Positions 1 through 63,660 are shown, counted from the stretch's first letter. The stretch is DNA of 64,000 nt from a virus (IMGVR_UViG_3300021399_000102:32001-96000); one strand, 5' to 3'. Numbers and translations: made by a program. Notes: generated by a model from the sequence alone, not told the origin.

Positions 1-105
1 TCATAAAGTACGACCCAGCAATATCTGCTGCCCTTGAATACAGTGTTGATGACATTTAATCCCTTTCATTGTAAATACTTCTACACACCAAAGAGGTATT
101 GACAC

Positions 106-573
106 ATGAAATGGAATAGACTTTACAAGGAGTCCACAAATCCTGAGTTCGTGAATGTGAGCAGGTTCCGTCAGGAAATCAAGGAAGTTCTTGAGGAGGC
201 TACCGAAAAGTGGCCAGAAGGATACATGAAGGATTGCGCTGACGACTACATCGACGAATATGTTGATATGATTGTGGAGGATGCAGTAAGGAGCTTCAAC
301 AAGCTTGTCCATAGGGACGATACCTCAATGTCTGGCAACTTCAAGGACATTCGCTATGATTGGGACGGGTTCCATAGGGAATATCCACATGGTTGCAGTT
401 TGAGCGAAGTTGTGGAGATGATTGACGCTGGCGAGGACAACGAATTCACCAAGGAGTTCAAGGATTGGGCAATTGATTGGTATTTCGAGGCATTTGGCAC
501 ATACAATTTGACATACAAGTGGACAGAATTCATGGAAGAAGCCACATATGACGAGGAGGACGATCAGATATGA
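106..573 (+). CDS. Acidic hypothetical phage protein
   Basis: 155-aa ORF; GAGGT RBS; GTAAATA at 71-77; ATGA overlap with next gene. Confidence 0.8.
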   Translation: MKWNRLYKESTNPEFVNVSRFRQEIKEVLEEATEKWPEGYMKDCADDYIDEYVDMIVEDAVRSFNKLVHRDDTSMSGNFKDIRYDWDGFHREYPHGCSLSEVVEMIDAGEDNEFTKEFKDWAIDWYFEAFGTYNLTYKWTEFMEEATYDEEDDQI

Positions 574-1325
574 AACGTATTATGAAGAAAAGCAAAAGGA
601 TGGTGAAGGAGAGCTATGAAGTCTCTCCTGAACTTGCAGACAGGTTGAACTCAATTCTTGCTGACGAGTTCTTGGCAGCAGAGTTCTATCGTTTGGCCGA
701 GCTTGCGATGAAGGGCAACAAGCAACATAGGCTTTCTGAGATTGCTGACGAGAATGGCGAGGACGAATTGGAGGATCACTTCAAGAACCTCTCTGAGTGG
801 ATGCAGTCCAAGGGAATCAAGGTTGTCACAAATCACGACCAGATGTTGGACATCACTGGGGCAACCGTATTCACTGTGGAGGATGGGGATTCCACCAAGG
901 ACATAGTGGATAAGTTGATTCAGTCTGAGGAAGAGGCTATTGAGGCATATGAGGATCTGATTCCAGACACCGACCTTGACCTTCATACGATGCTTTGTGG
1001 CTTCTTGAAGGATGAACGTGAGCATCTCAAGGCGTTGCAGGACGCAAAGGACGAGATGGGTGGTGGTCTTGAAGAGAGCAAGCCAAAGCACACCATTTAC
1101 GAGGGTATTGACAAGGGAAGACCAAAGGACTGGAATCATCTTAAGGCTACAAACATTCAGTGGGATGTGGATGATCCAGACGACCTTAAGCATGTGCCAG
1201 ACGAGATGTGGGTGGCAATCCCACCAGATGTGGAAGCAGAGGGACCAGAGGCAATTGAGGAATATATGTCAGATTACATCACTGACAATGGTGGCTTCTG
1301 CCACAAGGGATTTGACATAGAATGA
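570..1325 (+). CDS. Ferritin/Dps-like di-iron protein with an extra C-terminal small domain
   Basis: Four-helix-bundle motifs LADEFLAAEFY, DELEDH, EEEAIEAY, DEREH; separate C-terminal module NIQWD...DYITDNGGFCHKGF. Confidence 0.75.
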   Translation: MKRIMKKSKRMVKESYEVSPELADRLNSILADEFLAAEFYRLAELAMKGNKQHRLSEIADENGEDELEDHFKNLSEWMQSKGIKVVTNHDQMLDITGATVFTVEDGDSTKDIVDKLIQSEEEAIEAYEDLIPDTDLDLHTMLCGFLKDEREHLKALQDAKDEMGGGLEESKPKHTIYEGIDKGRPKDWNHLKATNIQWDVDDPDDLKHVPDEMWVAIPPDVEAEGPEAIEEYMSDYITDNGGFCHKGFDIE

Positions 1326-1639
1326 AGAAACTGCTTGCCATATTGGTTCTTTGCATTTCATTCACGGGTTGCGTGAATGTATGCACGAGAAATCCTTGGT
1401 CCAGAACCAGGATTGAGGACACCTATCAATGCACATAGGAAGCAGCAGGAATCTCTTGGATAATCATGTTTCCCCAGACGATGGGATATGGCAACAGCAA
1501 GGGGTTCATGTGGGAGAACATCTTCACGATTCCATTGGGGTTGGTGGGATTCTGCGATACGGCATGTGAAGCCGTATTGGACACCATATGCTTGCCATAT
1601 GATTGGTCAGTGTCCAACCATAGAAACAAATACAAGTGA
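1322..1639 (+). CDS. YceK/YidQ-like lipoprotein (1 TAG=Gln at 1436); absent from the ORF track
   Basis: MKKLLAILVLCISFTGC lipobox; C-terminal DTACEAVLDTICLPYD matches the D..S...DT.LLP.D signature; ATGA overlap with previous gene; ends TGA. Confidence 0.7.
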
Positions 1640-1656
1640 GATGGGGAAGATGATTT

Positions 1657-2880
1657 ATGAAGGTAATCGTTGAAAAGGACGATGAAAGCCTCATTGTAAA
1701 AGGGGCGAAGATGGCATATGGCGCTGTCAAGAACAAGCTTGTATCCATCATAACTGGCCACGCTGCATTGTCGTAGATTGGAACAATTCTCTCCATTCTT
1801 TCCTTCCTTCCTGGGATTGACAAGGATGCAGTTGAGAAGAAGATGAAGGAACTTTCTGGATTCCTCAATTCCAAGATTGAGGATTTCGATGAGTTCATGA
1901 AGTCCATTCCAATGTTGGAGACTTTGTTTGGGGACGAGAAAGATTGTCTCAAGAACATAATGCGTTTCGAGGTGTTTGTCCAACAGATTTCCTTGGGACA
2001 ATATCCAGCAGAGAACTACGACTTGTCGAAAGTTACGGTTGTGCAAACAACTTTCATGGCTTTGATTGCAATATGGGTTGCATTTGGTGCTGGCGTGGTT
2101 GGAACAGGTGGAATTGCGCTTTGTGTTTCTTGGATCATAAAGGATTTGAGCGTTCTTTGCTACAACAAGGTGTTTCCTACGATTGAGGAAGACCTCAAGA
2201 AGTTTGAGGAGTGGGCAAAGAGCAACAACGTGGATGTGGAGAAGAACGCAAAGAGCATCGGGAATGGAAAGACCCCTCAGAAGGGGGAGGCGAAGCCCAA
2301 AGAGGGTGAAAAGGAGGAGCAATCCAAGGAAAAGACAGATGAAAGTTTGCTTGGTGCGATTGCCAAGGGTGCAGCGAAGATGCTTGGAAAAGGTGCTGCA
2401 AAGGCCGCAACGAAGGGTGCTGCCAAAGGTGCTACGACCATTGCTGGCAAGGCAGCATCCAAACTTGCTCCAGCAGCAACCAAGGGATTGACGAAACTTG
2501 GGTCAAAGGTGTTGAAGCAGATAGCAAAGTTGAGTCCAAAGACAGCACAAGTGTTGAAGAAGGGTTCAGTTGAACTTGGCAAGGTGTTGAAGAAGTCAGG
2601 AATAACGATGGAACAAGCCCTTGGAAAGACTGGGGACTACATAGCGAACGCATATGAAAAAGCCAGTGAAGAGGACAAGAAGATTCTGGACGTGATGAAG
2701 GAGGACTTGAACTCTGCAACTGACGTGGATAATTTGATGGAGAAGCTTAAGGAGATGTTTGACATAATTGGGGGAGATGGACAAGAGTCTGATGGCAATG
2801 AAGAGGTTCAGAACGCCAATGAATCCACAAAATGGATTCCATTGAAAAGGACCAGGTGGATTTCGTTGGCTACCGTGTAA
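1657..2880 (+). CDS. Hypothetical protein with hydrophobic segment and Lys/Ala/Gly-rich repeats (1 TAG at 1774)
   Basis: ATG 1657 in frame with track ORF 1843-2880 across one TAG; KGAAK repeats; ends TAA. Confidence 0.7.
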
Positions 2881-2966
2881 ATAATACATGAATTGAACAT
2901 TCGATGCGAGGACTAGTCCATAGAATTGTTCACAACAAACAAATTACTCTATAGAGGAAACGCAAA

Positions 2967-4130
2967 ATGAAGAAACTAAACATTACGAAGAAGCAGTATG
3001 ACGAGTCCAAATACTTCAACAAGAAGTATGGTTCTCTGAAGTACGTTTCTGAATCAGGTAAGCTCTTCAAGACGGACAAGGGCGTAGTCCTTGCTCTTGA
3101 AGGAACTGAGACACAGGGTGCAGATGCACAGGGTGCTGAGGGAGATGGTCAGCAGACCGACGAGTCTCTCAAGGACATTGGAGATGCCATCAAGGGTACT
3201 GCCAAGGAAATTGGTGGCAAGATCAAGGATGGTGCGAAGAAGGGTGCGAAGGCAGTGAGCAACTTCTTCAACGGAAACTTCCGCAAGAACGACACAGTGG
3301 AGATTTCCGGTGGAGAGGACAGCGATGGCAAACCAGTCACGCTGAAGGGCGTTGTCAAGGACGCCGGAAAGAACGAGGTTACGATTGGTATCTCCAGGGA
3401 GGCAGCTGAATCCGACGATGGCGACGCTACTGAGGTTGGAGAGGAAGTGACCCGTGGCGAGCTTACCGACATTCTCAAGGACGTTGTTTCTGAGGTTGAG
3501 AAGGTTTGCGATTCTCAGGATATTTCCTTCGAGGAAGTTGCTGGCATTGAGACCCCAGAGGGTGAGGCTGACGAGACAGCTGACGCCGATGAGGTTGTTG
3601 CCACCAAGGAAGATGTTGCAGATGCACTTCAGGGCGTGATTGACGCCGTTGAGAAGGTTGCGGACGCCAATGACATCGAGCTTCCTGAAGAGGAAGAGGA
3701 CGAGGAGGGTGATGCTTCTGACGATGAAGATGGTGAGCAGTACGACGAAGGTTGCGATTGTGGCAAGAAGGATTGCCCAGAATGCAATCCTGATGGAGTC
3801 AAGGGCGAGTGCGGTGGTCAGGCTTGCGAGTGTGGAGACAAGGTAATGGAGTCCCGTAGGGCCCGTGCCAAGCTCGTTCGTGAGGCAATTGCCCGTCGTG
3901 CAAGAGCCCGCAAGATTCGTGAGAGCCGTGAGCGCCGCGCGAAGATTCGCAAGGTGATTGAGTCCATCCGTCGCCGTAGGGTTGCCAAGAAGGTGTTGGA
4001 GAGCATCCGCCGCCGTCGCGCAGCGAAGAAGATGATGGAGTCCAGGAAGCCAGCATTCAAGAAGATTGCTTCCAAGAGTGTTATGGAGTCCCGCAGGCTC
4101 CGTGCCCGTAGGGCCAGAATGGCAAAGTAA
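2967..4130 (+). CDS. Probable head-internal/scaffold-like protein: acidic core, Cys cluster, Arg-rich C-terminal ES-RR repeats
   Basis: 387 aa; GAGG RBS; GTAAATA 2877-2883; CDCGKKDCPEC; repeated ESRR/ESIRRRR units. Confidence 0.7.
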   Translation: MKKLNITKKQYDESKYFNKKYGSLKYVSESGKLFKTDKGVVLALEGTETQGADAQGAEGDGQQTDESLKDIGDAIKGTAKEIGGKIKDGAKKGAKAVSNFFNGNFRKNDTVEISGGEDSDGKPVTLKGVVKDAGKNEVTIGISREAAESDDGDATEVGEEVTRGELTDILKDVVSEVEKVCDSQDISFEEVAGIETPEGEADETADADEVVATKEDVADALQGVIDAVEKVADANDIELPEEEEDEEGDASDDEDGEQYDEGCDCGKKDCPECNPDGVKGECGGQACECGDKVMESRRARAKLVREAIARRARARKIRESRERRAKIRKVIESIRRRRVAKKVLESIRRRRAAKKMMESRKPAFKKIASKSVMESRRLRARRARMAK

Positions 4131-4160: not shown

Positions 4161-4200
4161 GCGAGGTTGCCTTTACAGGCAGCCTCGTTTCGTTTATAAT
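4161..4200 (+). terminator. Intrinsic terminator overlapping a sigma70-like promoter
   Basis: Stem GCGAGGTTGCC/GGCAGCCTCGT with TTTACA loop and T tail; TTTACA(4172)-17 nt-TATAAT(4195). Confidence 0.7.
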
Positions 4201-4206: not shown

Positions 4207-4725
4207 ATGGAAATTGAAGATTCCAAATTGGAGTTCTTGAACGAGAACAGAAATCGGCTGCTTGAAGGGTTTGACCATATCGACCAGAACATATTTAAGC
4301 CCAACATGATTTATGCCCTCAATGGAATTGGCTACAAGTTCATCATCGTTCCAGATGAAGATTGGACTCCAAGCAAGTGGTTTCCAACTGAGACATCTTC
4401 CCAAGACAGGGAGGTTAGGGTGATACATTCGTATATCTCCAAAAATTCTGGAATGTTGAGATATTCTGACCAATGTGGTTGGTCGTTTCACGAGTTGGCA
4501 CACGCTACGATATTTAGTGGCAATTTTACAGAGAAGTTCATATCGTTGGTTTCTCCATATGAATATCCTCTGAATAGAGATGAGCTTTATTGCTATGGCT
4601 ATCAGATTTGGAAGATGGCTCAAGTTGGAAAGTTGAAGAATTTTGTGAAGTTTGTTGTAAAGAAGGTTCCTTACATAGGAAATGACTTGGATTTGTTGGT
4701 AAAGGTAATTGCTCAAAGGCATTGA
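4207..4725 (+). CDS. HExxH-motif (metallopeptidase-like) protein
   Basis: FHELAHA and downstream NRDELYCY; ATG 6 nt after TATAAT. Confidence 0.55.
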   Translation: MEIEDSKLEFLNENRNRLLEGFDHIDQNIFKPNMIYALNGIGYKFIIVPDEDWTPSKWFPTETSSQDREVRVIHSYISKNSGMLRYSDQCGWSFHELAHATIFSGNFTEKFISLVSPYEYPLNRDELYCYGYQIWKMAQVGKLKNFVKFVVKKVPYIGNDLDLLVKVIAQRH

Positions 4726-4737: not shown

Positions 4738-5826
4738 ATGTATAGTTCATCAGAGTTCGTTTCGCAAGGTCATCCAGACAGAACATGCGACAGTATCGCG
4801 TCCTATCTTCTTGACATGTACTTGAAGCATGACCCCCATGTAAGGTTTGCCATGGAAATCCAGTTGAAGGGACAATATTGCAATCTTGCTGGTGAGGTTA
4901 CATCCACTTGGACGCCAGATAACGATATGGTTGCAGAGATGGTGAGGGATGCCATTAGAAAGGTTGGCTATACCCACGAGTATGCTTCTAAATGGCCGAA
5001 GAACGCTACCTTGGATGCTGATAATGTCATCGTAAACGATTTTGTTGGGCAGCAGTCCCCTGACATCGCCAAAGGTGTTGATAGGGAAGGTTGGGGAGAT
5101 CAGGGTTGCTTCATGGGCATGGCTACAACCGAACAGGAATATGACTATATGCCTATGGACAAGTATTTCGCCAACAAGATTGGAACATATCTCTATCATT
5201 CAGCGTTAAGGGGGGACATCAAGATTGGTCTTGACATCAAGGTTTTGGTCTCCATCAAGAACCCTAAAACGGTTGAGCAGGTGATTGTAGCGGCACCAAT
5301 GCTCCCAGAAAACGAGAAAGAAGCGAAGGAAGCCATCACGACCATAGTGAGAAATGTCATATTCAATCATGGTGTCGAGAATGGGGAAATCATCATCAAT
5401 GGCACTGGCGCTTATGTCATACATTCTTCCATTGGGGATGCTGGCGTTGTTGGCAGGAAGTTGGCTGTGGACTTCTATGGATTGAACTGCCCTATTGGGG
5501 GTGGAACGACTTGGGGCAAGGATGGCACGAAGGCTGATGTCACATTGAACCTTGCTGCACGATACAATGCCATGCTTCAGATGTTTCACACTCAGAAACC
5601 CACCTTCTGTAAGATTAGCTGCTGCATTGGAAATCCTGAGTGCCTTGTGTCCTTCTTTGAGAAGAACCATGACGAGCCTTATGCTGAGGATAGCGTCACC
5701 CTCCTTCCTTCTATTCTGACGCACAAGTTTGGGCTGGATGGTTCTGTCCCCAACATGTTCTGGGCGATGTGCGAGAATGGGTTGTTCTGCCGTGTGGACG
5801 AATTGGCGAGGTCTGAGGGTGAATGA
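4738..5826 (+). CDS. metK: S-adenosylmethionine synthetase
   Basis: SEFVSQGHPDRTCD, QQSPDIAKGV, GWGDQG, GDAGVVGRKLAVDFYG, GGG..GKD.TKAD. Confidence 0.95.
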   Translation: MYSSSEFVSQGHPDRTCDSIASYLLDMYLKHDPHVRFAMEIQLKGQYCNLAGEVTSTWTPDNDMVAEMVRDAIRKVGYTHEYASKWPKNATLDADNVIVNDFVGQQSPDIAKGVDREGWGDQGCFMGMATTEQEYDYMPMDKYFANKIGTYLYHSALRGDIKIGLDIKVLVSIKNPKTVEQVIVAAPMLPENEKEAKEAITTIVRNVIFNHGVENGEIIINGTGAYVIHSSIGDAGVVGRKLAVDFYGLNCPIGGGTTWGKDGTKADVTLNLAARYNAMLQMFHTQKPTFCKISCCIGNPECLVSFFEKNHDEPYAEDSVTLLPSILTHKFGLDGSVPNMFWAMCENGLFCRVDELARSEGE

Positions 5827-5851
5827 GCCGCAAATGGTAAATACCATTGTT

Positions 5852-8800
5852 ATGGATTCAGAATTGACAAGACCGCAGTCCCTTTAGGAACTATATAAGA
5901 CATATTTCGCCTTTGCGAACAAGTGCCAATTCACTACCCTTCTGAGGAACTACATTCAGAATGAGGAGTGGAAGGACAAGTCGCAAGAGCCAGTTTGGAA
6001 TATACTGTCCAAGATTTCAGACGACATTGGTGCCGTCCTCACAGACGACATAGTGAACTACACGAGAAACGTAGTTGACATAAACACTTGCAAGGTTCCG
6101 CAGTTCATAGAGCAGGGAAAGATGCTTTCGTATGGGCTTGACCACATCAAGAACTCATATGACTTTCTGCCAAAGCGCATACAGTGCCTTGTGGACATCT
6201 TCTCTGTGAATCCAGAGTTCTTGATTGGAAACCACAAGAACCACATTCTCTCCGACAAGGTAATCAAGGAAATCTTGGTCTATATCAAGGATAATGCCAC
6301 ATCAAATGTGGCATTCACCAACGAGGATGTAATCGACAGGTTGATAGATGATCCACATGGTCTCACTGACGCATAGACCTACAGGAACTTCGTATTGACT
6401 TTGTTCTACACAACCATAGTCAATGCCTTGTCTGCTCCATATTCTGACGAGAACAAGCAACCTATAGTGTTCAATTTGCTTTGGAAGGAAAGGCAGAATC
6501 AGAAGAACATCATCTCCCATCTCAGGGAATACAAGACTTGGGTTGACAAGTACATCTCCAACGAAATTGAGCATCCTCTGAACGATGGAGATTTGCGCAA
6601 CACCATCTATGATGAGGTGGAGCGCGTGAAGAATCAGAAGAAGATGTCGTCGAAGTTCAATCCATTCAAGGTTGCTGACCACATCTATTTCAATGGTCTC
6701 AATCCAACGAACAAGTTGTCTGACGATGAGTTGGACTTGGTTGAGATGGTGATTGACTATCATTCCAGGACGAAATACAACTACGAGGCTCAGGAGTTTG
6801 AGGACGACCAAAGCACACAGTACGCCTACTACAAGGAATTGGAGTTCTGCGAGTATGTCAAGATGATGATGTTCGTGATGAACAACCTCAAGTATTTCGA
6901 CCTTGACAACTTGTCCTACGATCCATCAAGCAACAAGTTCATACAAACGAAAACAGATGAGGAGAAGTGCTTGCGCGTTGTGGAGTTGTTCTGCGATGGA
7001 GAACATCTCGTGGAGGATGCGCAAGGGAACGTTGTTCTAAACCACAAGGACGTGGTGTTCAAGGTGGCAAAGTTCCTTTGCGACTATGTGTTCAACATCC
7101 AATTCATGAGAGAGAACATCAAAACTGTTGCGACCAAACATGCCATGAGGGGAACAGCTGGATTGCTTGTGCATATAGTGAACGACTATCTCATCAAGGA
7201 ATTGGGGTCTGTAAGGGACAGGATCCCCTTGGAAGACGCCAAGAAGAAGGGAATAGACATAAAGTTTGGTTGGGAGATTCAACCTGACAAGTTCCTCAAC
7301 TATGGCAACGCAACTGTCCTTGAATACGAGGACGACAACGAATACTTCAACATAGAGCCAGAGAAGGATGTTCGGTTCACAGAGCGCACCAACGCAAGAT
7401 ATTGGGAGAAGTTGGAGAACATGGGAGACGACGACAAGCTCGGCGTTCTCACAAAGGCTCAAATAAGGGATTTCTACAGAAAGACCCTGGGAATGGGGCG
7501 TTTGCAGCCAAAGAAGCCAAAGGACTATGACGATGTTTGTGATTTCTTGGTTGATTTGTTCAAGATTGGCGCGAATCCAATCGCTTGGAACAACGACAGC
7601 AAAGAACTGAACAACCCAATAGACAACATAACATATGATTCTGAGGAGAAGTATGGCTACACCAAGGCTGAGAGGATGGAGGTTCAGACCAATACTGCTT
7701 TGAGGGCAAACCAAGAACGTCAATTCCTGGAATACAGTGGCAACGAGGATTTGATTGGCGAGAGCATGTACGAGTTCGTCAATAGCAAGATATTCTATTG
7801 GAAGAATACTGACTTCTCCTCGCACGTCCTTCATCCATTCATGTACAATCTGAAGCTGTGGAACAAGCTCAACAACATCATCATCAATGGCTACAAGGAC
7901 TATGTGGATAACGACCTCATAGAGTACATGTCCTCAAAGATGAAGTTCGACCAGCTTGTTGGCGAGTTTGGGGAATGCAAGAACTTCTGGAAGTACAATG
8001 TGATGGACTTGACGGGATATACCACCAGGTACGAGGCTGCCATCAAGGACGAGCATAGGGACGACGACAACAAGACCACAAGCGAGTTGACAGGATATGA
8101 TGGTTTGTTCTACCCACAAGCAGCGGAGGAATTCCTATATTTGGTCAGAAACAGAGTCCACATAAGGGATGATATTGACGACGTGGAACAGGATTTCACC
8201 TTGACAAATGGATTCTTTGCGCAACATGGTTTGGAGGTCACTGATTCTGAAGATGAAGATGAGCAGGATAAGCAGAATAAGATGAAATATATCACATCTA
8301 ACCCATTTATTGAGGCGATATATTCAATCTATTGGCAGATTAAGGAGAATCCTGTATATGAATACAAGAAGGTGAACGACAATCCAGAGGAATGGAAGTG
8401 GGTTGAAACTTCAACCAAGAAGTCTTTCTACCTCAAGTGGTATTCCCATCTGAACTACACAAGAGCAGAGTATCAGAAGATCGCAATGCAACTTTGGTAT
8501 TGGCGAAAGAGGATTTGCGAATTGATTCGCACTGACTACGACATCTCAAAGTACTGCCTGGACATATAGGGCAATTCACTCATCTTGATGCATACGTTCC
8601 ATGACGAGGATTACGAGAAGAACCCATATCTCATAGACCTTGCCATAACGCAAAGCAAGTTGATGGACAATGCTTCTGGAAACAAGAACACGCACGTTCC
8701 ATTCTGCGAGAGCAAACTTGTCCGACCAAACGAGCTTTGGGTGAGATGGAAGTCAAACCCAATTGCTATTCCAGCATTTGACGTGAATTGGCAAGAGAAG

Positions 8801-14401: not shown

Positions 14402-14413
14402 TGGAGAGACAAA

Positions 14414-52527: not shown

Positions 52528-52530
52528 TGG

Positions 52531-54527: not shown

Positions 54528-54577
54528 CGTCTTGTTCTCCTTTACGCCATATATTATATCACATTGGGTCGATTATG

Positions 54578-54808: not shown

Positions 54809-54810
54809 TG

Positions 54811-55595: not shown

Positions 55596-55607
55596 TTCGT
55601 TTCTCCC

Positions 55608-56399
55608 TTACAGAGCGTTGAACTCCGACTCGCTCATGATCTTGATGTTTAGTTTCATGGCTTTCTTCAACTTTGACGAAGGTTCTCCCTTCAACCCGGC
55701 ATCAGCAACAACCAACGTGCCAAGACCCTTTGCCACGGACTCGGAAATCTCATATCCAAGTTCACGAGCCTTTGTCTGCGCCTGGGTTCTGGTCATCGTC
55801 TCCAACTTGCCAGTGAAGCAAATGCTGCCTTTGGTGGATTCAACTTTGGGCTTTGCAACCCCAACCGGGGGCTGGTACCTCGCGTCCTCAACAATGAGCT
55901 TCCACATCTCACGAAGGTTGTCAAGGGAGTCCAGAACCAACTTCTCCTTCACGGAGGGATTGGATTCAACTGTGTTGATCCAACCTTCCTTAAGGCAATC
56001 CTCGCCCCCAAACTTGTCCCAGAACGCCTCCATCACGCGACGCCCCGTTCCATAGACGAAGGCAGAAAGCGCGATGAAGATGCTCTTCTTTGGAGCAATC
56101 CAAAGTTTCTTGTTCAACTCGTCCACGAAGTTCACCTCAGACTTGTATGCCGGATTCGCCTTGAACCCAACCACATCCTTCAGGGTCTTGACTCCCCAAC
56201 CCTCAAGAGTGGCGTTGGAGACATTCATGACATTCAATCGTTCAAGGAATGCAGATATGGTCTCGTTGAACCGAGAAGGGCAATTCTCGTTCACGCAAAA
56301 GAGGTTCTTGACCCCATCCTTGCTCTGAATGATCTTCAATTCGCCACCGCATACGGGGCAACACTCAGGAATTCCAATGTTCATCTCCCAATCTCCCAT
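55608..56399 (-). CDS. ligA: NAD-dependent DNA ligase, C-terminal half (Zn finger, HhH-like, BRCT)
   Basis: PECCPVCG...LFCVNENCP; ICFTGKLETMTR...SVAKGLGTLVV...SSKLKKAMKLNIKIMSESEF. Confidence 0.85.
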   Translation of the reverse strand: MGDWEMNIGIPECCPVCGGELKIIQSKDGVKNLFCVNENCPSRFNETISAFLERLNVMNVSNATLEGWGVKTLKDVVGFKANPAYKSEVNFVDELNKKLWIAPKKSIFIALSAFVYGTGRRVMEAFWDKFGGEDCLKEGWINTVESNPSVKEKLVLDSLDNLREMWKLIVEDARYQPPVGVAKPKVESTKGSICFTGKLETMTRTQAQTKARELGYEISESVAKGLGTLVVADAGLKGEPSSKLKKAMKLNIKIMSESEFNAL

Positions 56400-56650
56400 C
56401 AATCTACGATATAGAACTTGCCATTATCCCACTGTTCGCCGACAAAGGTGGTATCACCATCGTTGTCATCCACGACGAACACCATGTTGTATCCCTCGTC
56501 GTCGTTCTCCAGTTTGACGAATGTTCCATTTGGAAGCTCATAGAGATTTCTGTTGTAGACCGATCCATCAGGGATATGTACCCCAATCTTCTCAAGGTCT
56601 TGACCCACATACTCTCTTACCATTTCCTTCGCATGTTCGCAGTCAATCAT
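56399..56650 (-). CDS. Hypothetical protein
   Basis: 83 aa; promoter TTGACT-17-TATACT at 56695-56723. Confidence 0.7.
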   Translation of the reverse strand: MIDCEHAKEMVREYVGQDLEKIGVHIPDGSVYNRNLYELPNGTFVKLENDDEGYNMVFVVDDNDGDTTFVGEQWDNGKFYIVD

Positions 56651-56735
56651 TGTGTTTCTCGCTTTCTTGTTGTTTTTTTGTCGTTAACACCTATAGTATA
56701 TCACATATAGGATGTGAAGTCAAGTACCCTTTGGG

Positions 56736-56939
56736 TCAGTTGTATCTACTGTGGAACCCATCATATCCCATCAGAATGTAGTAGATGCCCTCGAAAATTG
56801 AAATTATGCATGGGATTCCGCTTGCAGAGAACAACATGTACAGTATTCCCCACCACGGTTGCCCCAAGTAGAACTTGTGCGCCCCAAACCAACCGAAGAA
56901 GAACGCCAATATTACGGCTATCCAACGTTCACGTCTCAT
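56736..56939 (-). CDS. TM2-domain membrane protein
   Basis: AVILAFFFGWFGAHKFYLGQ..WGILY. Confidence 0.85.
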   Translation of the reverse strand: MRRERWIAVILAFFFGWFGAHKFYLGQPWWGILYMLFSASGIPCIISIFEGIYYILMGYDGFHSRYN

Positions 56940-57235
56940 TCGATTGGTCTTATCTGATTGACAGGTATTGCCCTGTTTTCCCACTTCCTATAGGCATCCA
57001 AATAGTATAAGCCCTTGTGGTAGTCGTATGTGACTTCGTAGTACATTCCATCTGGAATTGTTGAGGATATGAGCCACTTTCTGCTTCCAAGTATGCAACA
57101 TTGCCAAACCACATACACTTGGAAGTCAATGTCCCCATCAGACTTGTCAAGGTGTTCCTTGATATAGTCCACAACCAACTTTTGTGCTTCAAAATTGTAA
57201 TCTGGAAGCCCGGATTTTTCATTGTCATCTGCCAT
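56936..57235 (-). CDS. DUF6275-like phage protein
   Basis: VYVVW...DGMYYEVTY...YLDAYRKWEN. Confidence 0.7.
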   Translation of the reverse strand: MADDNEKSGLPDYNFEAQKLVVDYIKEHLDKSDGDIDFQVYVVWQCCILGSRKWLISSTIPDGMYYEVTYDYHKGLYYLDAYRKWENRAIPVNQIRPIE

Positions 57236-57247
57236 TGTATTTTCTCC

Positions 57248-57619
57248 TTAAAGTGTCATCATTATTCCAAAGGTCAAGAGAATCTGCCCAAGGTGGAGCA
57301 ATTGGTCTTGGATAAGGTTTATCTTCATCCTGTTCGCCTTGAGGTCATCCACGATTGCATGTACGATGGTATTGCCCATCACTGCACAAAGAAACCAAGG
57401 CGATGCGTAGAATGGTGCGCAAATGAATATGCTCCAATACAGCGCATGGCAATAAAGTGCCGCAATATAGTCGTGCTTGTACTTGTCAGGGGTTTCTCCT
57501 CCACAAACTTTCTTCCACCAGGACTTTTGCTTTCCATCTGACAACCAACCTTGCAGGGTATAGTCGGCAACGAGATGCCCAAGCAGCATCAGAATCAAAA
57601 TGAGTTGCCAAGTCAGCAT
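57248..57619 (-). CDS. DUF3307-like membrane protein
   Basis: HLVADYTLQ, HAIVDD, DQLLH. Confidence 0.75.
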   Translation of the reverse strand: MLTWQLILILMLLGHLVADYTLQGWLSDGKQKSWWKKVCGGETPDKYKHDYIAALYCHALYWSIFICAPFYASPWFLCAVMGNTIVHAIVDDLKANRMKINLIQDQLLHLGQILLTFGIMMTL

Positions 57620-57870
57620 AGAAAGTCCCCATCAACACAACAAGTCACGATTGGCGTTCCATCCCAATTGCGTCTTCCCCAAGGCCAATCGGGGTTTGTT
57701 GGATAGTTTGGAACTTCCGGTGGCCAGGTTGGATATGTTGGTGTCTCAGATGGCCAGCATGGATATGGTCTGTTGATTTGTGGATATCCATTGTTTGGGG
57801 GATTCTCAACGATCCTGCGAATCTCCTCTTCTGAACCCTCGTATGTAATTCCATTTATGGTTGCTTTCAT
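57613..57870 (-). CDS. Pro-rich hypothetical protein
   Basis: MKATINGITYEGSEEEI; PTYPTWP repeats. Confidence 0.65.
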   Translation of the reverse strand: MKATINGITYEGSEEEIRRIVENPPNNGYPQINRPYPCWPSETPTYPTWPPEVPNYPTNPDWPWGRRNWDGTPIVTCCVDGDFLC

Positions 57871-57883
57871 AATAGTCTCCTGT

Positions 57884-58102
57884 TCAATCTAAATGCTTAC
57901 CCTTCTTTCCACGCTTTTCATATACTGCGGAAATGCCAATGAGTCTCCTACCCTTGTTGTCTTTGCCCTTGAAGAATGCAGTAAGGGCATCAACAGTCTT
58001 TTCTCCAGAAACCCGGACTATGCCACTTTCTTTTGTGACGTTCCCTTCAGAAGAAATCTCCCAGGTTATGTCCCACTCCATGATGCCGTCATTTGCCTCC
58101 AC
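57884..58102 (-). CDS. Hypothetical protein
   Basis: 72-aa ORF overlapping the end of thyX. Confidence 0.5.
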   Translation of the reverse strand: MEANDGIMEWDITWEISSEGNVTKESGIVRVSGEKTVDALTAFFKGKDNKGRRLIGISAVYEKRGKKGKHLD

Positions 58103-58784
58103 TTTGCTCTTTTCCCTTTACCTTGCCACAACCACGCTTCTCAGGGCAATAGCCCAGTTCCTGACACTTTGGCTTGAATACCTTGAGGTCGTAGGAAAGC
58201 TCCTCCCATTCGTCAGAATAGTTCTCCAACTGCCAAAGAATCTCCTTCATCAATTCACGATATTCCCAATATGCTCTGTTGCAAAGCCTCTGTCTAGTCA
58301 TGTCAATCAAGTGTCGAAGATTGGTTCTCACCACAACCTTTGTCGTGGATGCCAGAGGAAGCACGTTTGTGGCATCCTCGTTTGGGATTCCAAGTTGCTT
58401 CAACTTCTCAATCGTACCAGGGACTTGAGAAACCAACTCTGACCATACCTTCTTCGCTTCCATGTTGTTCTCAATGGACTTCGGCGTAACAACCTCAAAG
58501 CACTTGGAATAGTCGATGTATCGCGTGGAAGCCTGAAGTCTGGAGGGACCACCAGCAATGTGCGTGTAGAACTCGCGTATGACCTTCGCTGACCATCCAT
58601 CCAACACCATGTAGATTTGTGGGAACTCCATCGCACGTCCATGGTTGGACTGTATGCAATCAACCCCTCGCTTGTGGTTCTTCTCTGCGTCAGATATGTC
58701 GGCTCCCCAGCAGATTCCTGCTTCTTCGCCAATAAGTGTGATTGGATTCGTTGTCGTGTACTTCTGGATTGCTACTGTTCCCAT
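58089..58784 (-). CDS. thyX: FAD-dependent thymidylate synthase
   Basis: HGRAMEF, REFYTH, QASTRY, EDATNVLP, NLRHL, RLCNRAYWEYR. Confidence 0.9.
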   Translation of the reverse strand: MGTVAIQKYTTTNPITLIGEEAGICWGADISDAEKNHKRGVDCIQSNHGRAMEFPQIYMVLDGWSAKVIREFYTHIAGGPSRLQASTRYIDYSKCFEVVTPKSIENNMEAKKVWSELVSQVPGTIEKLKQLGIPNEDATNVLPLASTTKVVVRTNLRHLIDMTRQRLCNRAYWEYRELMKEILWQLENYSDEWEELSYDLKVFKPKCQELGYCPEKRGCGKVKGKEQSGGK

Positions 58785-58841
58785 GTTCTTTATCCTCAAT
58801 TGCCAATCCAATTATACAACTTTTTGCGCTTGAAGAGATAA

Positions 58842-59807
58842 TCAATATCCTGATGTGGTGTAGGATATGTCAGGTGGATCATTGGAAATGGTCAATCCAG
58901 ATCCAAAGTCAGATGGCAGTGTGAAATATTGGCCTGTGATATTGTTTATCAACGGAATCATGTCGCTTATTGAATCTCCGGAATATTCGTCCCATTTGAT
59001 GTTGCCATTCGAGTCGAACTTGACGCCGTGTTCCTCCAACAGGTTCATTGCGTCTGCTCCATCCTCATAGAGCTTGTTCAACTTTCCTTCAAGGTCAGAT
59101 ATTCGGTCTTGTTGTTCATTGATTATGCTTCTGGACTCGTTTATTTCTTCCTCAAGTTGGCTTGAACTCATCTGCATTCTGCTGATCTTGTTCATGGCTT
59201 CCTTCAGAAGCTCTATGTTACTGAATTCAGTTTCGTTGGGGAACTTGCGCCAATCGTTGTACATTGAGACAAGTTCATATACGATTCCATATATGTCCGA
59301 TGTTTCTGGAACGCCAAATGCGCCTCTCAACTCGCCATTTTCAAGTATTGTGATGTTGTCAGGAATGCCATAGCCCTTTCTAAACACCATGTTCGCATAG
59401 ACTGTGTTTATGGCCGGTATGGATGGAGAAGACGAATATATGTCCTTTGCCTTTGCCTTTTCCTCGCTCCTTTTTCTCAACTCCTTCCACATTTCCTTCA
59501 TCTTCCCAAATGGCTTTTGGCTTGATTTCTCCACTATGAACACACGTTTGTAGCCAATTCCCAGGGTGGTGTTTGGGGCATATGTGACTATCAGAGGATA
59601 GTCTTCGGCTTGCCCAAACTTCTCAGCAGTAACTGGATGGTAGTCCTTATCCATCTTTGACCAATCAGGAATCTTGACCTTGGTGATGAACTTGTTGTTG
59701 GAGTTGTGGATAGACATCTCAGGATATTCTTGGAACATATCGTTCCAATCTACGTCAATTTCGTCCTTCTGAACAGCCCACCCTGTTGCCCAACTGTCGT
59801 TGTTCAT
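58842..59807 (-). CDS. Coiled-coil paralog 3 of a tandem triplet
   Basis: YNDWRKFP...LNKLYEDGADAMNLLEEHG; AGGAGG RBS. Confidence 0.75.
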   Translation of the reverse strand: MNNDSWATGWAVQKDEIDVDWNDMFQEYPEMSIHNSNNKFITKVKIPDWSKMDKDYHPVTAEKFGQAEDYPLIVTYAPNTTLGIGYKRVFIVEKSSQKPFGKMKEMWKELRKRSEEKAKAKDIYSSSPSIPAINTVYANMVFRKGYGIPDNITILENGELRGAFGVPETSDIYGIVYELVSMYNDWRKFPNETEFSNIELLKEAMNKISRMQMSSSQLEEEINESRSIINEQQDRISDLEGKLNKLYEDGADAMNLLEEHGVKFDSNGNIKWDEYSGDSISDMIPLINNITGQYFTLPSDFGSGLTISNDPPDISYTTSGY

Positions 59808-59817
59808 GGAATCCTCC

Positions 59818-60903
59818 TTATTGGTCTGCGTTGTTGTACCCATTGAATGCCTTGAGTGACATATTCAGGCTTCTTGACAACTTCTGCAACAATTCTGTTG
59901 GCATCTCCATCTTTACATCCAAGTCCTTCTTCTGGAATTTCTCAATCTTCGTCAAGTCGTAGCCATATTCCTCAAGTAGATTCAATGCGTCTGCTGCCTT
60001 CTCGTACATTTCGTTCTGTTCGCGTTCAAGTTCAGCAATTTTCTCTTGACTTGACTTGATGCTTGTGCGAATGTCATCAATCTTGTTCTTGATTCTCCCT
60101 GAACTTTCCTCCTTCTGCATTTCCTCAACAGCATTCCACGCAAACGTCAATTTGGCTACAATGTCAGAGGATTCCACGTCAGGGAACCTTCTCCAATTCT
60201 CGTATTGCAAATAGAGATCGTCAACTGCGCAATTCACGAGATATGCGTCTGGGAGAAATTCGCCAGTCTTGTCACGAATCTTGCCATCCATTCCCATTTT
60301 ATATGGTCTATCCACAAACCTACCGTGTGCCTCAAGCTCGTCTTGGTTGTACTTGGCAACAGATGCGCAAAGGTTATTCATTTGCTTGAACGGAATGTTG
60401 TCCTCTGTGAACACAATCTTTGCGAAAGGATGTTCTTCAAATGCATCTGGCGAAGATGGCATATAGGTGACAAGATTCACTATGGTGTTGGTTCTTTGCT
60501 TGTCTCCAATGTTCCAAGCTGTTGCGCTGAATCCAGGATATTGCTCAACCCAACTTGGGAGAACTTCGTATTTCTTTGGCTTGGGACTGTTTTTGATGAG
60601 TGTGCTTCTTTGGGAACGTGGATCAAATGCAATTTTTCCAGGCGTCCCTTCCCACCAATAGTGTTGGTCGTCTGAATAATTGGAATTCTCTTGTCCCCAA
60701 TTTAATGGACGTTCTGTTGTTTGAGACCATCCAGGTGGAAGCTCACCTCCAATGTAATTCCCATTGGAAGATTTGTATGCAGAATCGTCAGAATCGCCAC
60801 TCTTCTTGTATATGTCCTCCAAAGAAGAGCGCATATGTGCGACAGCAAGATTCCTTTGCTGCTCAGCCTTTGCCATGTTGCTTTTCTTGAAAATGTTCCA
60901 CAT
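59818..60903 (-). CDS. Coiled-coil paralog 2 of a tandem triplet
   Basis: YENWRRFP...QNEMYEKAADALNLLEEYG. Confidence 0.75.
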   Translation of the reverse strand: MWNIFKKSNMAKAEQQRNLAVAHMRSSLEDIYKKSGDSDDSAYKSSNGNYIGGELPPGWSQTTERPLNWGQENSNYSDDQHYWWEGTPGKIAFDPRSQRSTLIKNSPKPKKYEVLPSWVEQYPGFSATAWNIGDKQRTNTIVNLVTYMPSSPDAFEEHPFAKIVFTEDNIPFKQMNNLCASVAKYNQDELEAHGRFVDRPYKMGMDGKIRDKTGEFLPDAYLVNCAVDDLYLQYENWRRFPDVESSDIVAKLTFAWNAVEEMQKEESSGRIKNKIDDIRTSIKSSQEKIAELEREQNEMYEKAADALNLLEEYGYDLTKIEKFQKKDLDVKMEMPTELLQKLSRSLNMSLKAFNGYNNADQ

Positions 60904-60926
60904 ACTACATTATACCACTTCAGGTG

Positions 60927-61895
60927 TCATTGGATTAATGTCCACTTGTTGTTTCCACAATAGACAGCTTGCTTGTTGTTATTTGGATTAACCACAATAT
61001 CCCCAATTTCAATGCTTCCTGGGATTGTGGAGAATCCAACTGATACTCCACCACTTGAATTGGCTGAAATGGACGCTGTTCCAATGAACTTTGAACCCCA
61101 ATAATGAGAACCACTGGATACTGACCCTGGGTACAACGAGCTAAAGTCAAGATTGTTTATTATGGAATTAATTTCCCGAGATAGGTCGGCTTTCCTTGGT
61201 TCTCCATCCCCATCCATGTCAGCCTTGATTCCATTTTCCTCAAAGAGGTTCATGGCATCAGCGGCTTGCTCATAAATCTCGTTCAGGGATTTCTCCAACT
61301 TGACAATCTTCTCTTGCTCGGCCTTGATTGTCTCTTGGGCTTCCTTGATTTGGTTGGCTATCCAATTGTGGGATTCCTCGATATTGAGCTTATTTATTGC
61401 CTCTTGACCTTCAATGAGCTTCCTTACGGTGTCCAACTCGTTTATGGTAGGGAAATCCTTCCACTGACTCCACATGGTGATTGCTTCCTTGAGGATTGGC
61501 CAGATTTCATTGGCTTTCACAATCATCTTGCAATGCGTCAATCTGCCTTCAGAATCAATCTCGTAGTCGGGTTGAGATTGCTTCGCAAATATCTTGCCAA
61601 GCTCCCTCCACATATCCTTCATGTAGGGGACAGGCTGACCATTCTTCTCCACAAGATACAGCCTCGTGAAGTCGCTCAAATGTGGGAAACCTGGCTTTGC
61701 CTTGTATTCGACAACAACAACCTTTGGATCTTGAAGGTTCATGTCGTAGGCAACATCAAGGTAGTTGTCCTCCCTCGGCGCCCAAAGGGGAGTCCCAACC
61801 ATATCCGGCTTTGTCTTGAAGACAGGGGGTCTCCGATTGAAACCTGATGGTGAAGGTTTCTTGAAGATTGGCAGGGGAAGAACGGAAAAGCTCAT
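60927..61895 (-). CDS. Coiled-coil paralog 1 of a tandem triplet
   Basis: WSQWKDFP...LNEIYEQAADAMNLFEENG; GAGGT RBS. Confidence 0.75.
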   Translation of the reverse strand: MSFSVLPLPIFKKPSPSGFNRRPPVFKTKPDMVGTPLWAPREDNYLDVAYDMNLQDPKVVVVEYKAKPGFPHLSDFTRLYLVEKNGQPVPYMKDMWRELGKIFAKQSQPDYEIDSEGRLTHCKMIVKANEIWPILKEAITMWSQWKDFPTINELDTVRKLIEGQEAINKLNIEESHNWIANQIKEAQETIKAEQEKIVKLEKSLNEIYEQAADAMNLFEENGIKADMDGDGEPRKADLSREINSIINNLDFSSLYPGSVSSGSHYWGSKFIGTASISANSSGGVSVGFSTIPGSIEIGDIVVNPNNNKQAVYCGNNKWTLIQ

Positions 61896-61927
61896 ATTAC
61901 CTCGTTAGGTTTCTCTCTCTCTTCTTC

Positions 61928-62290
61928 TCATCTTGCCATGAAGATTGAATAGGCGATTGCGTTGGATTCTCGGACTTTCAGTTCCTTGATTATCCATTCA
62001 TTGCCATTTGCGCATATGAATCCGTGCTTTGGCTTCTTCCTATCGCAGACGACCACCATCCCACCAACAGGAACGTCACATCCCATAATCATGTCGTCAA
62101 CGTGTGACAATTCGTTGTAGGAGAGCGCGTCAAGAATGTCCTGTTCGCTCTTGCAATTGGCATCATCCTCGCTTTGGGTGATGTGAGTCCAGTCCCACTT
62201 CACCTTTGACAGATCAACCTCCTTGGTCTTCAACGTGAGGTTGATTATGTCCTTTGGATTCTTCGCGGTTATGATGTACTTCTTCATCAT
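61928..62290 (-). CDS. Hypothetical protein
   Basis: 120 aa, ATGA-coupled. Confidence 0.7.
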   Translation of the reverse strand: MMKKYIITAKNPKDIINLTLKTKEVDLSKVKWDWTHITQSEDDANCKSEQDILDALSYNELSHVDDMIMGCDVPVGGMVVVCDRKKPKHGFICANGNEWIIKELKVRESNAIAYSIFMAR

Positions 62291-62541
62291 AGTTCAATCA
62301 TGTCAAAGTCATTGGACTTGGTGTGTGATGGCTGGGCAACCACAGAATACCATCCATCTTCTATGTCCCTGACCGCATCCTTGATGTGGTCTTTGACGAC
62401 ATAGGAATTGCCCTTGTATAGCATCGTCTTCTTGCCGAGTACATGTGCCTGGAGCAGAGCTGTCATGAAGCTCGTGTTGTATCTCGGACCGTCTGGTATA
62501 GTTGGCATAATCTTCTCCTGTTGTCTCTTTCCAAACTTCAC
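62287..62541 (-). CDS. Hypothetical protein
   Basis: Promoter TTGACA-18-TATAAT at 62546-62575; start codon uncertain. Confidence 0.6.
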   Translation of the reverse strand: MKFGKRQQEKIMPTIPDGPRYNTSFMTALLQAHVLGKKTMLYKGNSYVVKDHIKDAVRDIEDGWYSVVAQPSHTKSNDFDMIEL

Positions 62542-62619
62542 CTATATTATATCACAAACCGCCTCGGGCTGTCAATAGCCCTTTGCGGATTTGTTTGGGG
62601 TCAATATGTCCTTGATATA

Positions 62620-63153
62620 TTAGGTCAGAACGAACACAACCCTATAATCCTCGCCATATTCAGTATATTCGCTGAGAACAAGGTCGATTGCTTCCTTCTG
62701 ACCAATGCTTCTCATCTCCTCATATCCAAGCTGAAGATCCTCAACAAGTTGCTTGTTGATGGGGAACGTCATTTTGTCCTTCTCATCGTCTCCCCAAGGC
62801 TCAAGCTCGTCACCATCGTCAGAATAGACCCGAGGGCAACCCAACGCCTTTACAACCATGTTGAGCTTGGTGTAGGCATTGTGAATCTTGGAGGATACTG
62901 CATCTTCAAGCTCTTGTGTGGTCTTGGTATAGAAGCTGGCGTAGCACCTTGCTTCTCCTGTAGTGTCGTCCTTCTCCTGCGGATAGATTCCCTTGAGACC
63001 ATCAGACAAATCTTCCCACTTGAGCTTGGGATATTCGTTGTAGTCCTCAAAGATGTACTTCAGATAGCTGGAGATTGGCTTTTCTGTGACAAGTTCCCAC
63101 TTGTCAGTGTCCTTATTCTTGTGTTCAACGTATGCTGCAATGTTGTAGCCCAT
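62620..63153 (-). CDS. Hypothetical phage protein
   Basis: MGYNIAAYVEHKN start overlapping the upstream TAA. Confidence 0.7.
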   Translation of the reverse strand: MGYNIAAYVEHKNKDTDKWELVTEKPISSYLKYIFEDYNEYPKLKWEDLSDGLKGIYPQEKDDTTGEARCYASFYTKTTQELEDAVSSKIHNAYTKLNMVVKALGCPRVYSDDGDELEPWGDDEKDKMTFPINKQLVEDLQLGYEEMRSIGQKEAIDLVLSEYTEYGEDYRVVFVLT

Positions 63154-63548
63154 TAGTGTGTCCTTTCTTTTTCGTTGTTCTCTTTTGGAGGATTCCCAAA
63201 CCAATAACTTGGCGCAAGTTCATCTGACTTGTAGATGTAGTGGAATTCAGTGTTCCCATTCTCGTCCTCGACTTCTTCGCCACCCTCTATGTCTGCTTCT
63301 GCAACGAGAGTGTCCTTTGGGCCGGTTGGTGGCTTTGGGACTTTCGCTGGTTCTGGAGGGGGAGGTGGAGGGTCATCTTCAAGGTCGTCTGGCCATCTTG
63401 TATTTGACAGATTGATTCCGTATCCCATGCTTTTCTTTCCAAACAGGAGAAGAATGAATTCATATGTCATGTACACAAACCCCATAAAGCAAAGGGTAAG
63501 GATTACGAGTAGAACTGGGTGTTCCAATAATGTCAATAGGAATTGCAT
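63153..63548 (-). CDS. Membrane-anchored Pro-rich protein
   Basis: N-terminal TM helix; PPPPPPEP; promoter TTTACT-17-TATAAT at 63576-63604. Confidence 0.7.
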   Translation of the reverse strand: MQFLLTLLEHPVLLVILTLCFMGFVYMTYEFILLLFGKKSMGYGINLSNTRWPDDLEDDPPPPPPEPAKVPKPPTGPKDTLVAEADIEGGEEVEDENGNTEFHYIYKSDELAPSYWFGNPPKENNEKERTH

Positions 63549-63660
63549 AGTTGTTTGTCTCCTTTAGTATACTATATTATACGTCTTTTCGGAATTAAAG
63601 TAAAGGCGGGTCAGCTTTCGCCAACCCACCCTGTATCATTCTGCTTGAATGGCTTGTATG

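Follow-up and report, generated by a model that had tools for sequence, protein, structure and literature searches.

The subject of this analysis is the heptamer GTAAATA, together with the in-frame TAG codons of the genes that follow it, in a stretch of viral DNA 64,000 nucleotides long (IMGVR_UViG_3300021399_000102:32001-96000), called the window throughout. The window is G000:C1:32001-96000 of a 201,557-bp IMG/VR virus record, which CheckV rates as about 48% complete. G000 denotes the window's genome, and G001, G002 and G003 denote three complete relatives with terminal repeats, of 414,060, 433,895 and 418,068 bp. The phage is a T4-like jumbo phage of a gut/rumen clade with genomes of 414-434 kb, in which TAG is read as glutamine (Gln) by means of the phage's own amber suppressor tRNA. 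The G000 contig starts inside a gp23-type major capsid protein (MCP) gene (PF07068, E=2e-33), and G001 has both a gp23-type capsid (PF07068, E=4e-72) and a gp20-type portal (PF07230, E=6e-68). The capsid proteins of G001, G002 and G003 are 77-80% identical among themselves, the G001 copy of the window's sigma gene is 62% identical to it, and a comparison of G000 with G001 gave 154 reciprocal-best orthologues with a median amino-acid identity of 68%. Genes of G000 were called with a home-made code-15 caller that treats TAG as sense everywhere (252 genes, 90% coding); window reading frames of 2,575 and 3,613 codons are open only with TAG read through. Glutamine is the residue class most often found opposite TAG in alignments (16/64 and 21/73 aligned sites).

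The initial annotation proposed that recoded TAG codons are confined to genes behind a GTAAATA late-type promoter. The central result is that promoter class does predict the use of TAG gene by gene in four genomes, including where units of the two classes are interleaved. In what follows, L is the GTAAATA class and E the GTATAAT or sigma70-like class; "direct" counts take the gene right behind a promoter, and counts "by unit" take the whole transcription unit. The GTAAATA units of the window are as follows.

71-77, plus strand: GTAAATA heading genes 106-573, 570-1325, 1466-1639 and 1657-2880, the last with 1 TAG.
2877-2883, plus strand: GTAAATA upstream of 2967-4130 (no TAG); motif and leader are kept in the G001 orthologue.
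5837-5843, plus strand: GTAAATA upstream of the giant gene 5852-13579 (8 TAG).
14897-14903, plus strand: GTAAATA right after a terminator hairpin, before 14936-17398 (glycosyl/pyruvyl transferase, 10 TAG) and 17590-17841 (1 TAG).
17860-17866, plus strand: GTAAATA upstream of 17889-19490 (1 TAG).
19743-19749, minus strand: GTAAATA upstream of 19492-19710 (no TAG).
21757-21763, minus strand: GTAAATA before 20375-21724 (5 TAG) and 19760-20359 (2 TAG), the divergent partner of the 21813 site.
21813-21819, plus strand: GTAAATA before the gene for a 3613-residue protein, 21856-32697 (13 TAG), and a peptidase gene, 32699-33385.
33389-33402, plus strand: fused TATAATTGTAAATA element upstream of 33442-36930 (1 TAG), kept in G001.
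37474-37535, minus strand: tandem promoters, TTGACA-18-TATAAT (37535-37506) and then GTAAATA (37480-37474), before 37006-37434 (no TAG).
40357-40363, minus strand: GTAAATA after the terminator hairpin 40403-40372, before 39863-40315 (1 TAG).
43757-43763, minus strand: GTAAATA heading 43158-43724 (1 TAG).
44432-44438, minus strand: GTAAATA heading a phosphoesterase gene, 43756-44391 (2 TAG).
45164-45170, minus strand: GTAAATA 9 nt before the ATG of 44546-45154 (no TAG), a leaderless geometry.
46457-46485, minus strand: GTAAATA (46485-46479) and GTATAAT (46463-46457) after a hairpin, before a glycosyltransferase gene, 45450-46430 (no TAG).
48208-48214, minus strand: GTAAATA after the hairpin 48271-48233, before 46567-48117 (no TAG).
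49807-49801, minus strand: minus arm of a divergent GTAAATA pair, before 49426-49767 (1 TAG) and 49031-49423 (2 TAG).
49838-49844, plus strand: plus arm of the same pair, heading 49853-50077.
50560-50566, minus strand: GTAAATA heading 50121-50522 (2-3 TAG).
51173-51179, minus strand: GTAAATA 9 nt before the ATG of 50879-51163 (no TAG).

All 20 sites listed initially are present at their coordinates and on their strands, and each lies 15-100 nt before a co-oriented gene start. Two corrections are needed: one gene (37006-37434) stands behind both the GTAAATA at 37474 and the perfect sigma70 promoter at 37506, and TAG is wholly absent from 8 of the 20 GTAAATA units.

The second class is represented in the window by the following sites, with the TAG-free block that accompanies them.

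4172-4200, plus strand: TTTACA-17-TATAAT with an ATG 6 nt further on, heading 4207-4725 and metK (4738-5826), both TAG-free.
13612-13640, plus strand: TTGACA-17-GATAAT heading the TAG-free island 13678-14815.
38966-38995, minus strand: TTTACC-18-TACAAT heading the sigma gene.
39799-39828, minus strand: TTTACG-18-TATAAT after a hairpin, before a DNA methyltransferase gene (38977-39753, TAG-free).
41453-41481, minus strand: sigma70-like promoter heading 41087-41422 (TAG-free).
41863-41892, minus strand: perfect sigma70 promoter (12/12, TG-extended) heading 41526-41828 (TAG-free).
54553-54581, minus strand: perfect sigma70 promoter before a gene for NAD-dependent DNA ligase (53430-54527, TAG-free).
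56695-56723, minus strand: sigma70-like promoter heading 56399-56650.
62546-62575, minus strand: TTGACA-18-TATAAT heading 62287-62508.
63576-63604, minus strand: TTTACT-17-TATAAT heading 63153-63485.
50578-63548, minus strand: 13-kb TAG-free block of early or replication-type genes (ligase, ThyX and others).

Two mechanical scans recovered all 11 sigma70-like sites of the initial annotation, those at 37506, 41863 and 54553 matching the consensus at 12 of 12 positions with a TG extension. The promoters of this class take the form TTGACA or TTTAC, N17, (TG)nTATAAT, with an additional form tttcGTATAATTGaa that lacks a -35 element; sites of the GTATAAT class have TTTAC at N17, and a third, stronger sigma70 class, GGGG..TTGACA-N17-TGTGATATAATATAGG, takes in most of the 11. 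They head genes for replication and nucleotide metabolism and small genes of unknown function, and the E-class genes include UvsW-like and DnaB-like helicases, a gp44-like clamp loader, ThyX, ligase, DnaJ and an Mre11-like protein. It was also correctly noted at the outset that the block 50578-63548, metK, the methylase gene, the sigma gene and the 13.7-14.8 kb island are free of TAG, their stops being TAA or TGA.

The window has 22 copies of GTAAATA, a number reached in 0 of 100 shuffles; 4.2 would be expected. The two copies beyond the 20 already described are at 27217 (plus strand, intragenic) and 49866 (minus strand). Alignment of the sites extends the motif to AAT(G/T)GTAAATA, and the lack of a -35 element was borne out, there being no information more than 4 nt upstream of the motif except for a weak TT at about -15. 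A de novo search for 7-mers enriched within 80 nt upstream of gene starts in G000 placed GTATAAT (36 of 55 copies upstream) and GTAAATA (38 of 62) as the top two; in G001 GTAAATA came top (93 of 118) and GTATAAT (79 of 124) was within the top five.

In the four genomes the distances from heptamer to start codon fall into two groups, in the same way in both classes: 5-9 nt and 20-40 nt, with a void at 10-17 nt. The 5-9 nt peak is sharp (68/342 in L, 47/296 in E) and the 20-40 nt peak is broad. Because this spacing matches that of the GTATAAT class, GTAAATA occupies the position of a -10 box. A gap of 5-9 nt leaves no space for a Shine-Dalgarno sequence (examples in the window are 45164-45170 and 51173-51179 on the minus strand, and 49838-49844 and 4195-4200 on the plus strand), which suggests that leaderless mRNAs are numerous in both temporal classes.

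Between orthologues of G000 and G001 the promoter class is kept almost without exception (L-L 26, E-E 19, L-E 1, E-L 1), while the DNA flanking these class-conserved promoters is only about 35% identical. Terminator hairpins stand directly upstream of several GTAAATA sites, and back-to-back pairs of the motif are found in divergent intergenic regions. The genes headed by the L class include the MCP operon and those for portal, baseplate wedge, tail sheath stabiliser, endolysin, adhesin-like giants and glycosyltransferases. The late promoter of T4 is a -35-less TATAAATA at -13 to -6, read by gp55 (PMC7892883; PDB 7D7C/7D7D), and the promoter described here has 6-7 of 8 bases in common with it, likewise occupies the -10 position without a -35 element, and likewise precedes structural and lysis genes. 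Given the geometry, the hairpin and divergent contexts, the conservation between orthologues and the functions of the genes headed, GTAAATA is best regarded as a promoter, and the sequence evidence supports its being a T4-type late promoter in behaviour.

The motif might instead be an RNA-level signal for processing or stability, or the binding site of a DNA-binding regulator. One observation speaks for this, namely that a conserved antisense GTAAATA lies inside the leader of a gene homologous to that of T4 gp55 (discussed below), where it could act as an operator. The proposal is nevertheless very unlikely, since it has to contend with start-codon spacing the same as that of a sigma70 -10 box, including starts only 5-9 nt away, with motifs placed directly after terminators and back to back in divergent regions, and with the close resemblance to the T4 late promoter.

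Several further features of promoter arrangement may be recorded here. Promoters of either class may follow a terminator hairpin immediately (minus strand: 40372-40403, 46506-46529, 48233-48271, 43106-43131, 39813-39839 and 53368-53398), and such terminator-promoter cassettes insulate the interleaved early and late units. At least 10 divergent GTAAATA pairs of G001 are exactly 25 nt apart (for example 36052/36077, 86844/86869, 100260/100285 and 149283/149308), and the divergent pairs of G000 have variable spacings of 18 to 50 nt. A fused dual element, GTATAATTGTAAATA, in which a -35-less -10 box is joined to the late motif, is present at 33389-33402 of the window, at 25651, 28810, 183883 and 192701 of G000, and at 206293 and 230300 of G001. 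More generally, a late motif lies near 14 of 54 GTATAAT sites without a -35 element, against 4 of 79 with one.

The link between TAG and promoter class can be counted in several ways. For the four genomes, direct counts compared genes behind GTAAATA only with those behind GTATAAT only. In G000, TAG is found in 21 of 41 L genes (88 TAGs in 21.8k codons) and in 0 of 35 E genes (0 in 7.5k codons; p=1.4e-7). The corresponding counts are 47/89 against 10/80 in G001 (p=2e-8), 52/94 against 11/69 in G002 (p=3e-7), and 56/85 against 7/78 in G003 (p=1.5e-14). Counted by unit, G000 has TAG in 32 of 77 L genes and 5 of 139 E genes (p=3e-12). The L units hold 93%, 84%, 78% and 82% of the in-frame TAGs of G000, G001, G002 and G003, respectively, those of G000 making up 48% of its codons. 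Pooled over the four genomes, and taking any sigma70-like site as E, the density of TAG is 3.69 per 1000 codons in L and 0.71 in E, and only 2 of the 99 genes behind TTGACA-type promoters contain one. As a share of Gln codons in G000, TAG makes up 11% in L and 0-1% in E. Within the window itself, TAG genes number 10/16 (L) and 1/17 (sigma70-like) by direct count (p=8e-4), and 15/32 (L) and 2/33 (E) by unit (p=2e-4).

The initial annotation had 16 of 17 TAG-containing genes in GTAAATA units, with dut as the exception. A recount gives 16-17 such genes, 15 of them in these units; dut remains a real exception, and is the sole real TAG gene of a sigma70-type unit in the window.

41917-42741, minus strand: dut, with TAG at codon 38, in a sigma70-type unit whose promoter is a GTATAAT at 43100.

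The N-terminus of dut is kept in its orthologue. A further apparent exception, the reading frame 52531-52974, was rejected as an artefact of start calling, because its TAG (codon 4) lies upstream of the conserved start M37.

We considered whether the association might arise from the length or base composition of the genes or from the way they were called. L genes are indeed longer (median 270 residues against 157) and slightly more AT-rich, and the caller was home-made, with TAG treated as sense throughout. However, the check that had been suggested, a test with controls for Gln and AT content, left the association standing in both G000 and G001. When length, GC, Gln content and out-of-frame TAG enter a logistic model as covariates, the effect of class in G000 has p=1e-6 (direct) and 1e-5 (by unit); in G001 the odds ratio is 3.5-3.7, with p=0.009 (direct) and 4e-5 (by unit). 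The effect also survives length-matched tests. Between L and E, the frequency of out-of-frame TAG differs by a factor of only 1.1-1.4 (1.3-1.4 in G000), and that of in-frame TAG by a factor of 3 in G001 and of more than 10 in G000. A caller that takes TAG as sense can only raise the number of TAGs in E genes, against the direction of the association, and both promoter class and TAG status are conserved between orthologues. An origin of the link in length, composition or gene calling is therefore extremely improbable.

A separate observation concerns the ends of genes. TAG stands 1-9 codons before the final TAA or TGA in 19760-20359, 49031-49423 and 50121-50363 of the window and in 108636-109049 of G000, in one case as adjacent TAG-TGA. 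In the three complete relatives, the sole TAG lies within the last 12 codons in 17 of 74 TAG-bearing E-unit genes, compared with 9 of 239 in L. TAGs near a gene's end look like old TAG stops with a back-up stop.

It had been proposed that late genes need both a phage sigma factor and a code switch, that is, a double lock. In its parallel form, this means that every late gene is held off independently by its late promoter with a phage sigma and by its in-frame TAGs, and that the TAGs are present because they block premature expression of that gene. The late-type promoter and the tendency of TAG to follow class are upheld by the present results. In favour of the parallel form are the strength of the association in four genomes and the presence of TAGs in endolysin and adhesin-like genes, the latter agreeing with what Borges et al. 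proposed on the timing of lysis (bioRxiv 10.1101/2021.08.26.457843). The per-gene lock itself fares poorly. Between 54 and 59% of late-unit genes have no TAG (44/77 in G000, and 93/170, 114/193 and 99/182 in the relatives), about as many as a binomial model would leave without one if TAG fell at random on about 10% of Gln codons. In three genomes no TAG occurs in the capsid gene, whose Gln is almost always CAG. Only 5-7 of the approximately 61-64 aligned TAGs of G000 meet a TAG in G001, conservation is somewhat lower at TAG sites than at other Gln sites (34% and 49%, p=0.04), and the suppressor tRNA is not under a late promoter. A parallel lock on every gene is accordingly unlikely. The random-like spread, the TAG-free capsid gene and the poor positional conservation all point to TAG being tolerated and not placed; in sequence terms, tolerance in late genes with purging from early ones looks a better fit than a designed lock on each gene. 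A concentration of TAG in fast-evolving late genes was also considered and rejected, orthologue identity being 57.7% with TAG and 57.8% without.

The suppressor tRNA and its promoter class were also sought, as had been recommended. In G000 a tRNA-like gene is found at 114727-114647 (minus strand), 18.6 kb past the end of the window, with a cloverleaf-like structure, a 7-nt CUA anticodon loop and a GCCA end; its syntenic copy in G001 is 85% identical. ARAGORN (default and relaxed) and Rfam do not report the G000 gene, and very relaxed ARAGORN gives hundreds of false calls; at the syntenic place in G002 and G003, ARAGORN calls a tRNA(CUA). Since the finders miss the gene in G000 and G001, and those of G002 and G003 look canonical, one syntenic slot seems to hold two suppressor designs. 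In all four genomes the tRNA lies 3' of a giant late gene, with a terminator hairpin between them in G002 and G003, and has its own non-late promoter, a -35-less, sigma70-like GTATAATTGAA. No release factor gene was found in G000 or the complete G001 with PF00472 (as a control, the profile matched 10 of 14 genomes), and no gene for glutaminyl-tRNA synthetase (GlnRS) was found in either.

As to the factor that reads GTAAATA, the window encodes one sigma-like protein.

37889-38941, minus strand: sigma70-family gene 'sigA', 350 residues, TAG-free, with a strong region 2 (Pfam sees region 2 only).

A second sigma70-family gene lies at G000:126292-127065 (minus strand); its product has 257 residues, with region 2 and a weak region 4, and the gene is TAG-free and stands behind a TTGACA-type promoter in all four genomes. 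T4 gp55 found no match in the G000 contig, which represents about 48% of the genome. In each of G001, G002 and G003 it matches a gene of about 215 codons (E=1e-6 to 1e-7), so that the clade has three sigma-like factors; the gp55 gene of the window's phage presumably lies in the unassembled half. The homologue is present in the three complete relatives and seven further contigs, matches phrog_234 'late sigma transcription factor' (E=3e-17, profile positions 4-178 of 181), and keeps the T4 promoter-pocket residues N13, Y97 and T99 (residues as given in PMC7892883). In T4, gp55 acts in late transcription together with gp33 and the sliding clamp gp45 (Geiduschek & Kassavetis, PMC2988020). Judging from these comparisons, GTAAATA is most likely read by a gp55-family late sigma.

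The alternative is that the motif is read by the window's sigma or by that of G000:126292-127065. Both genes are TAG-free, lie behind sigma70-like promoters and are conserved in four genomes, and Pfam recognises only region 2 in the window protein. At the positions aligned with Q437 and T440 of sigma70, which contact the -12 base, the window protein has different residues. On the other hand, its predicted fold aligns over more than 300 columns with full-length sigmaS and sigmaA, albeit with a weak E of about 2e-3, and so it may well have regions 3 and 4. The clade also keeps a full-length gp55-family protein with conserved promoter-pocket residues, and the promoter resembles that of T4, which gp55 reads (PMC7892883). 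On balance a reader from the sigma70 family is rather unlikely. Neither BLASTP nor profile comparison found similarity between the window's sigma and T4 gp55. The clade has a gp55-family late sigma, and the window's own sigma gene is probably not the late factor.

The gp55 homologue is itself a TAG-bearing gene. It has a clade-specific N-terminal extension of 35 residues, absent from T4, with 1-3 TAGs at codons 24-26 in all 10 relatives. Codons 24 and 26 are invariant Gln columns at which TAG alternates with CAA and CAG; each is TAG in 7 of 10, together 14 of 20, as compared with a TAG share among Gln codons of about 10% for late genes and 1-3% for early ones (nominal p=2e-10). After the TAGs there is no conserved in-frame start until M74, the codon for Val43 varying between GTC, GTA and GTG. 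Since synonymous changes occur on both sides of the TAGs, translation evidently runs through them. The gene's promoter, some 100 nt upstream, is a -35-less GTATAATTG, the type also found at the suppressor tRNA.

An opposite-strand GTAAATA stands about 65 nt upstream of the ATG of the gp55 homologue in 10 of 10 relatives (L088-L094, L096, L099 and L100; for example G001:79237-79243, minus strand), falling between the GTATAATTG promoter and the start codon. An antisense late promoter and a feedback site are both possible roles for it.

With TAG at codons 24-26 of the gp55 homologue in each of the 10 relatives, the two layers appear to act in series and not in parallel, the code switch probably preceding late transcription. 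The scheme would run as follows. Genes translated before the suppressor tRNA accumulates would be kept TAG-free. The late sigma would be completed only once amber suppression works, so that the order would be suppressor tRNA, then late sigma protein, then transcription from GTAAATA, the code switch licensing late transcription. Genes transcribed from the late promoter alone could then bear TAG as a rare Gln codon (about 10%), and the capsid gene, as the most highly expressed late gene, would avoid it. We infer the timing, the assignment of sigma factors to promoters and any regulatory role of the TAGs from sequence. Taken as a whole, the best explanation, which we consider probable, is that there are two promoter classes, that TAG is tolerated in the late one, and that the gp55-type sigma is amber-gated.

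Several points weigh against this explanation. In the three complete relatives 23-27 E-unit genes contain TAG, so that confinement is strong and not absolute. Each genome encodes two further sigma70-family proteins, either of which could read GTAAATA. The clade's (T/G)GTAAATA has a G where T4 has the flipped A at -12. Searches for gp33 and gp45 gave no match (T4 gp33 and PF02916; six records), at low sensitivity and with an empty PF02916 control. The 10 gp55 homologues are related, and the binomial p-values therefore overstate their independence. Finally, gating in the window's phage is an extrapolation from relatives whose MCP is 77-87% identical.

It is worth adding some details of the source and annotation of this DNA. 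The DNA runs in which parts of the window occur bear the labels of sheep gut, bovine gut and rumen metagenomes, which as regards habitat is only a lead. A tblastn search with one window protein against 50,697 phage records gave no match. PHROGs, Pfam and NCBIfam give no function for most late genes of the window; tail sheath PF04984 had no match, and tail tube PF06841 had weak matches only, below the cut-off. The ends of the G000 contig, CTCTTCCGATCT at 1-12 and AGATCGGAA at 201549-201557, look like remnants of sequencing adapters in the assembly.

Besides the -35-less promoter type, features in common with T4 are the relatives' gp55-family protein with equivalents of N13, Y97 and T99, the gp23-type capsid, the gp20-type portal in the complete relatives and the gp44-like clamp loader. 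It differs from T4 in its two additional sigma70-family genes, in the TAG-bearing N-terminal extension of the gp55 homologue, and in the many late and early genes that start at the predicted transcription start. In Bacillus phage SPO1 a sigma cascade runs from gp28 to gp33/34. The present phages are similar in that phage sigma-like factors made from earlier promoter classes would redirect host RNA polymerase in turn; here, however, one step is apparently controlled at translation, through a reassigned stop in the sigma gene.

Recoded stops are known to be enriched in structural, late and lysis genes of gut phages (Devoto 2019, PMC6784885; Borges, bioRxiv 10.1101/2021.08.26.457843). Like the code-15 phages described previously (Lak, crAss-like and gemstone clades), the present clade reads TAG as Gln, has its own tRNA(CUA) and large TAG-free early regions, and carries TAG in structural and lysis genes, and for those phages too a change of code during infection has been proposed. 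Unlike Lak, neither G000 nor G001 has a gene for release factor 2 or GlnRS. The clade differs further in being T4-like, with genomes of 414-434 kb, and in that its use of TAG can be tied, for each unit, to a defined late promoter. The word 'promoter' is absent from the Borges preprint and from a 2026 survey of jumbo phages (PMC13037316), a word for which Devoto (PMC6784885) was not searched; the latter mentions sigma factors once, without relation to timing or gating. A literature search found no phage paper that ties together GTAAATA, late promoters and recoding, or that describes an amber-gated late sigma.

For the annotation of uncultured jumbo phages, GTAAATA flags late genes, and gene callers that use code 11 will split the late genes and the gene for the late sigma alike. 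Recoded stops in late genes have so far been known only as a regional trend. In this clade each transcription unit can be assigned to a promoter class, and the tRNA, the late sigma and the late promoter can be named together with their own promoters. It is plausible, though a little short of probable, that the change of code is what chiefly times late development in this clade: the mRNA of the late sigma and the suppressor tRNA would both come from promoters of the GTATAATTG type, the sigma would be finished only by readthrough of the conserved TAGs in its leader-like N-terminal extension, transcription from GTAAATA would have to wait for efficient amber suppression, the TAGs scattered through late genes would be a tolerated consequence, and the antisense GTAAATA may feed back on the synthesis of the sigma.

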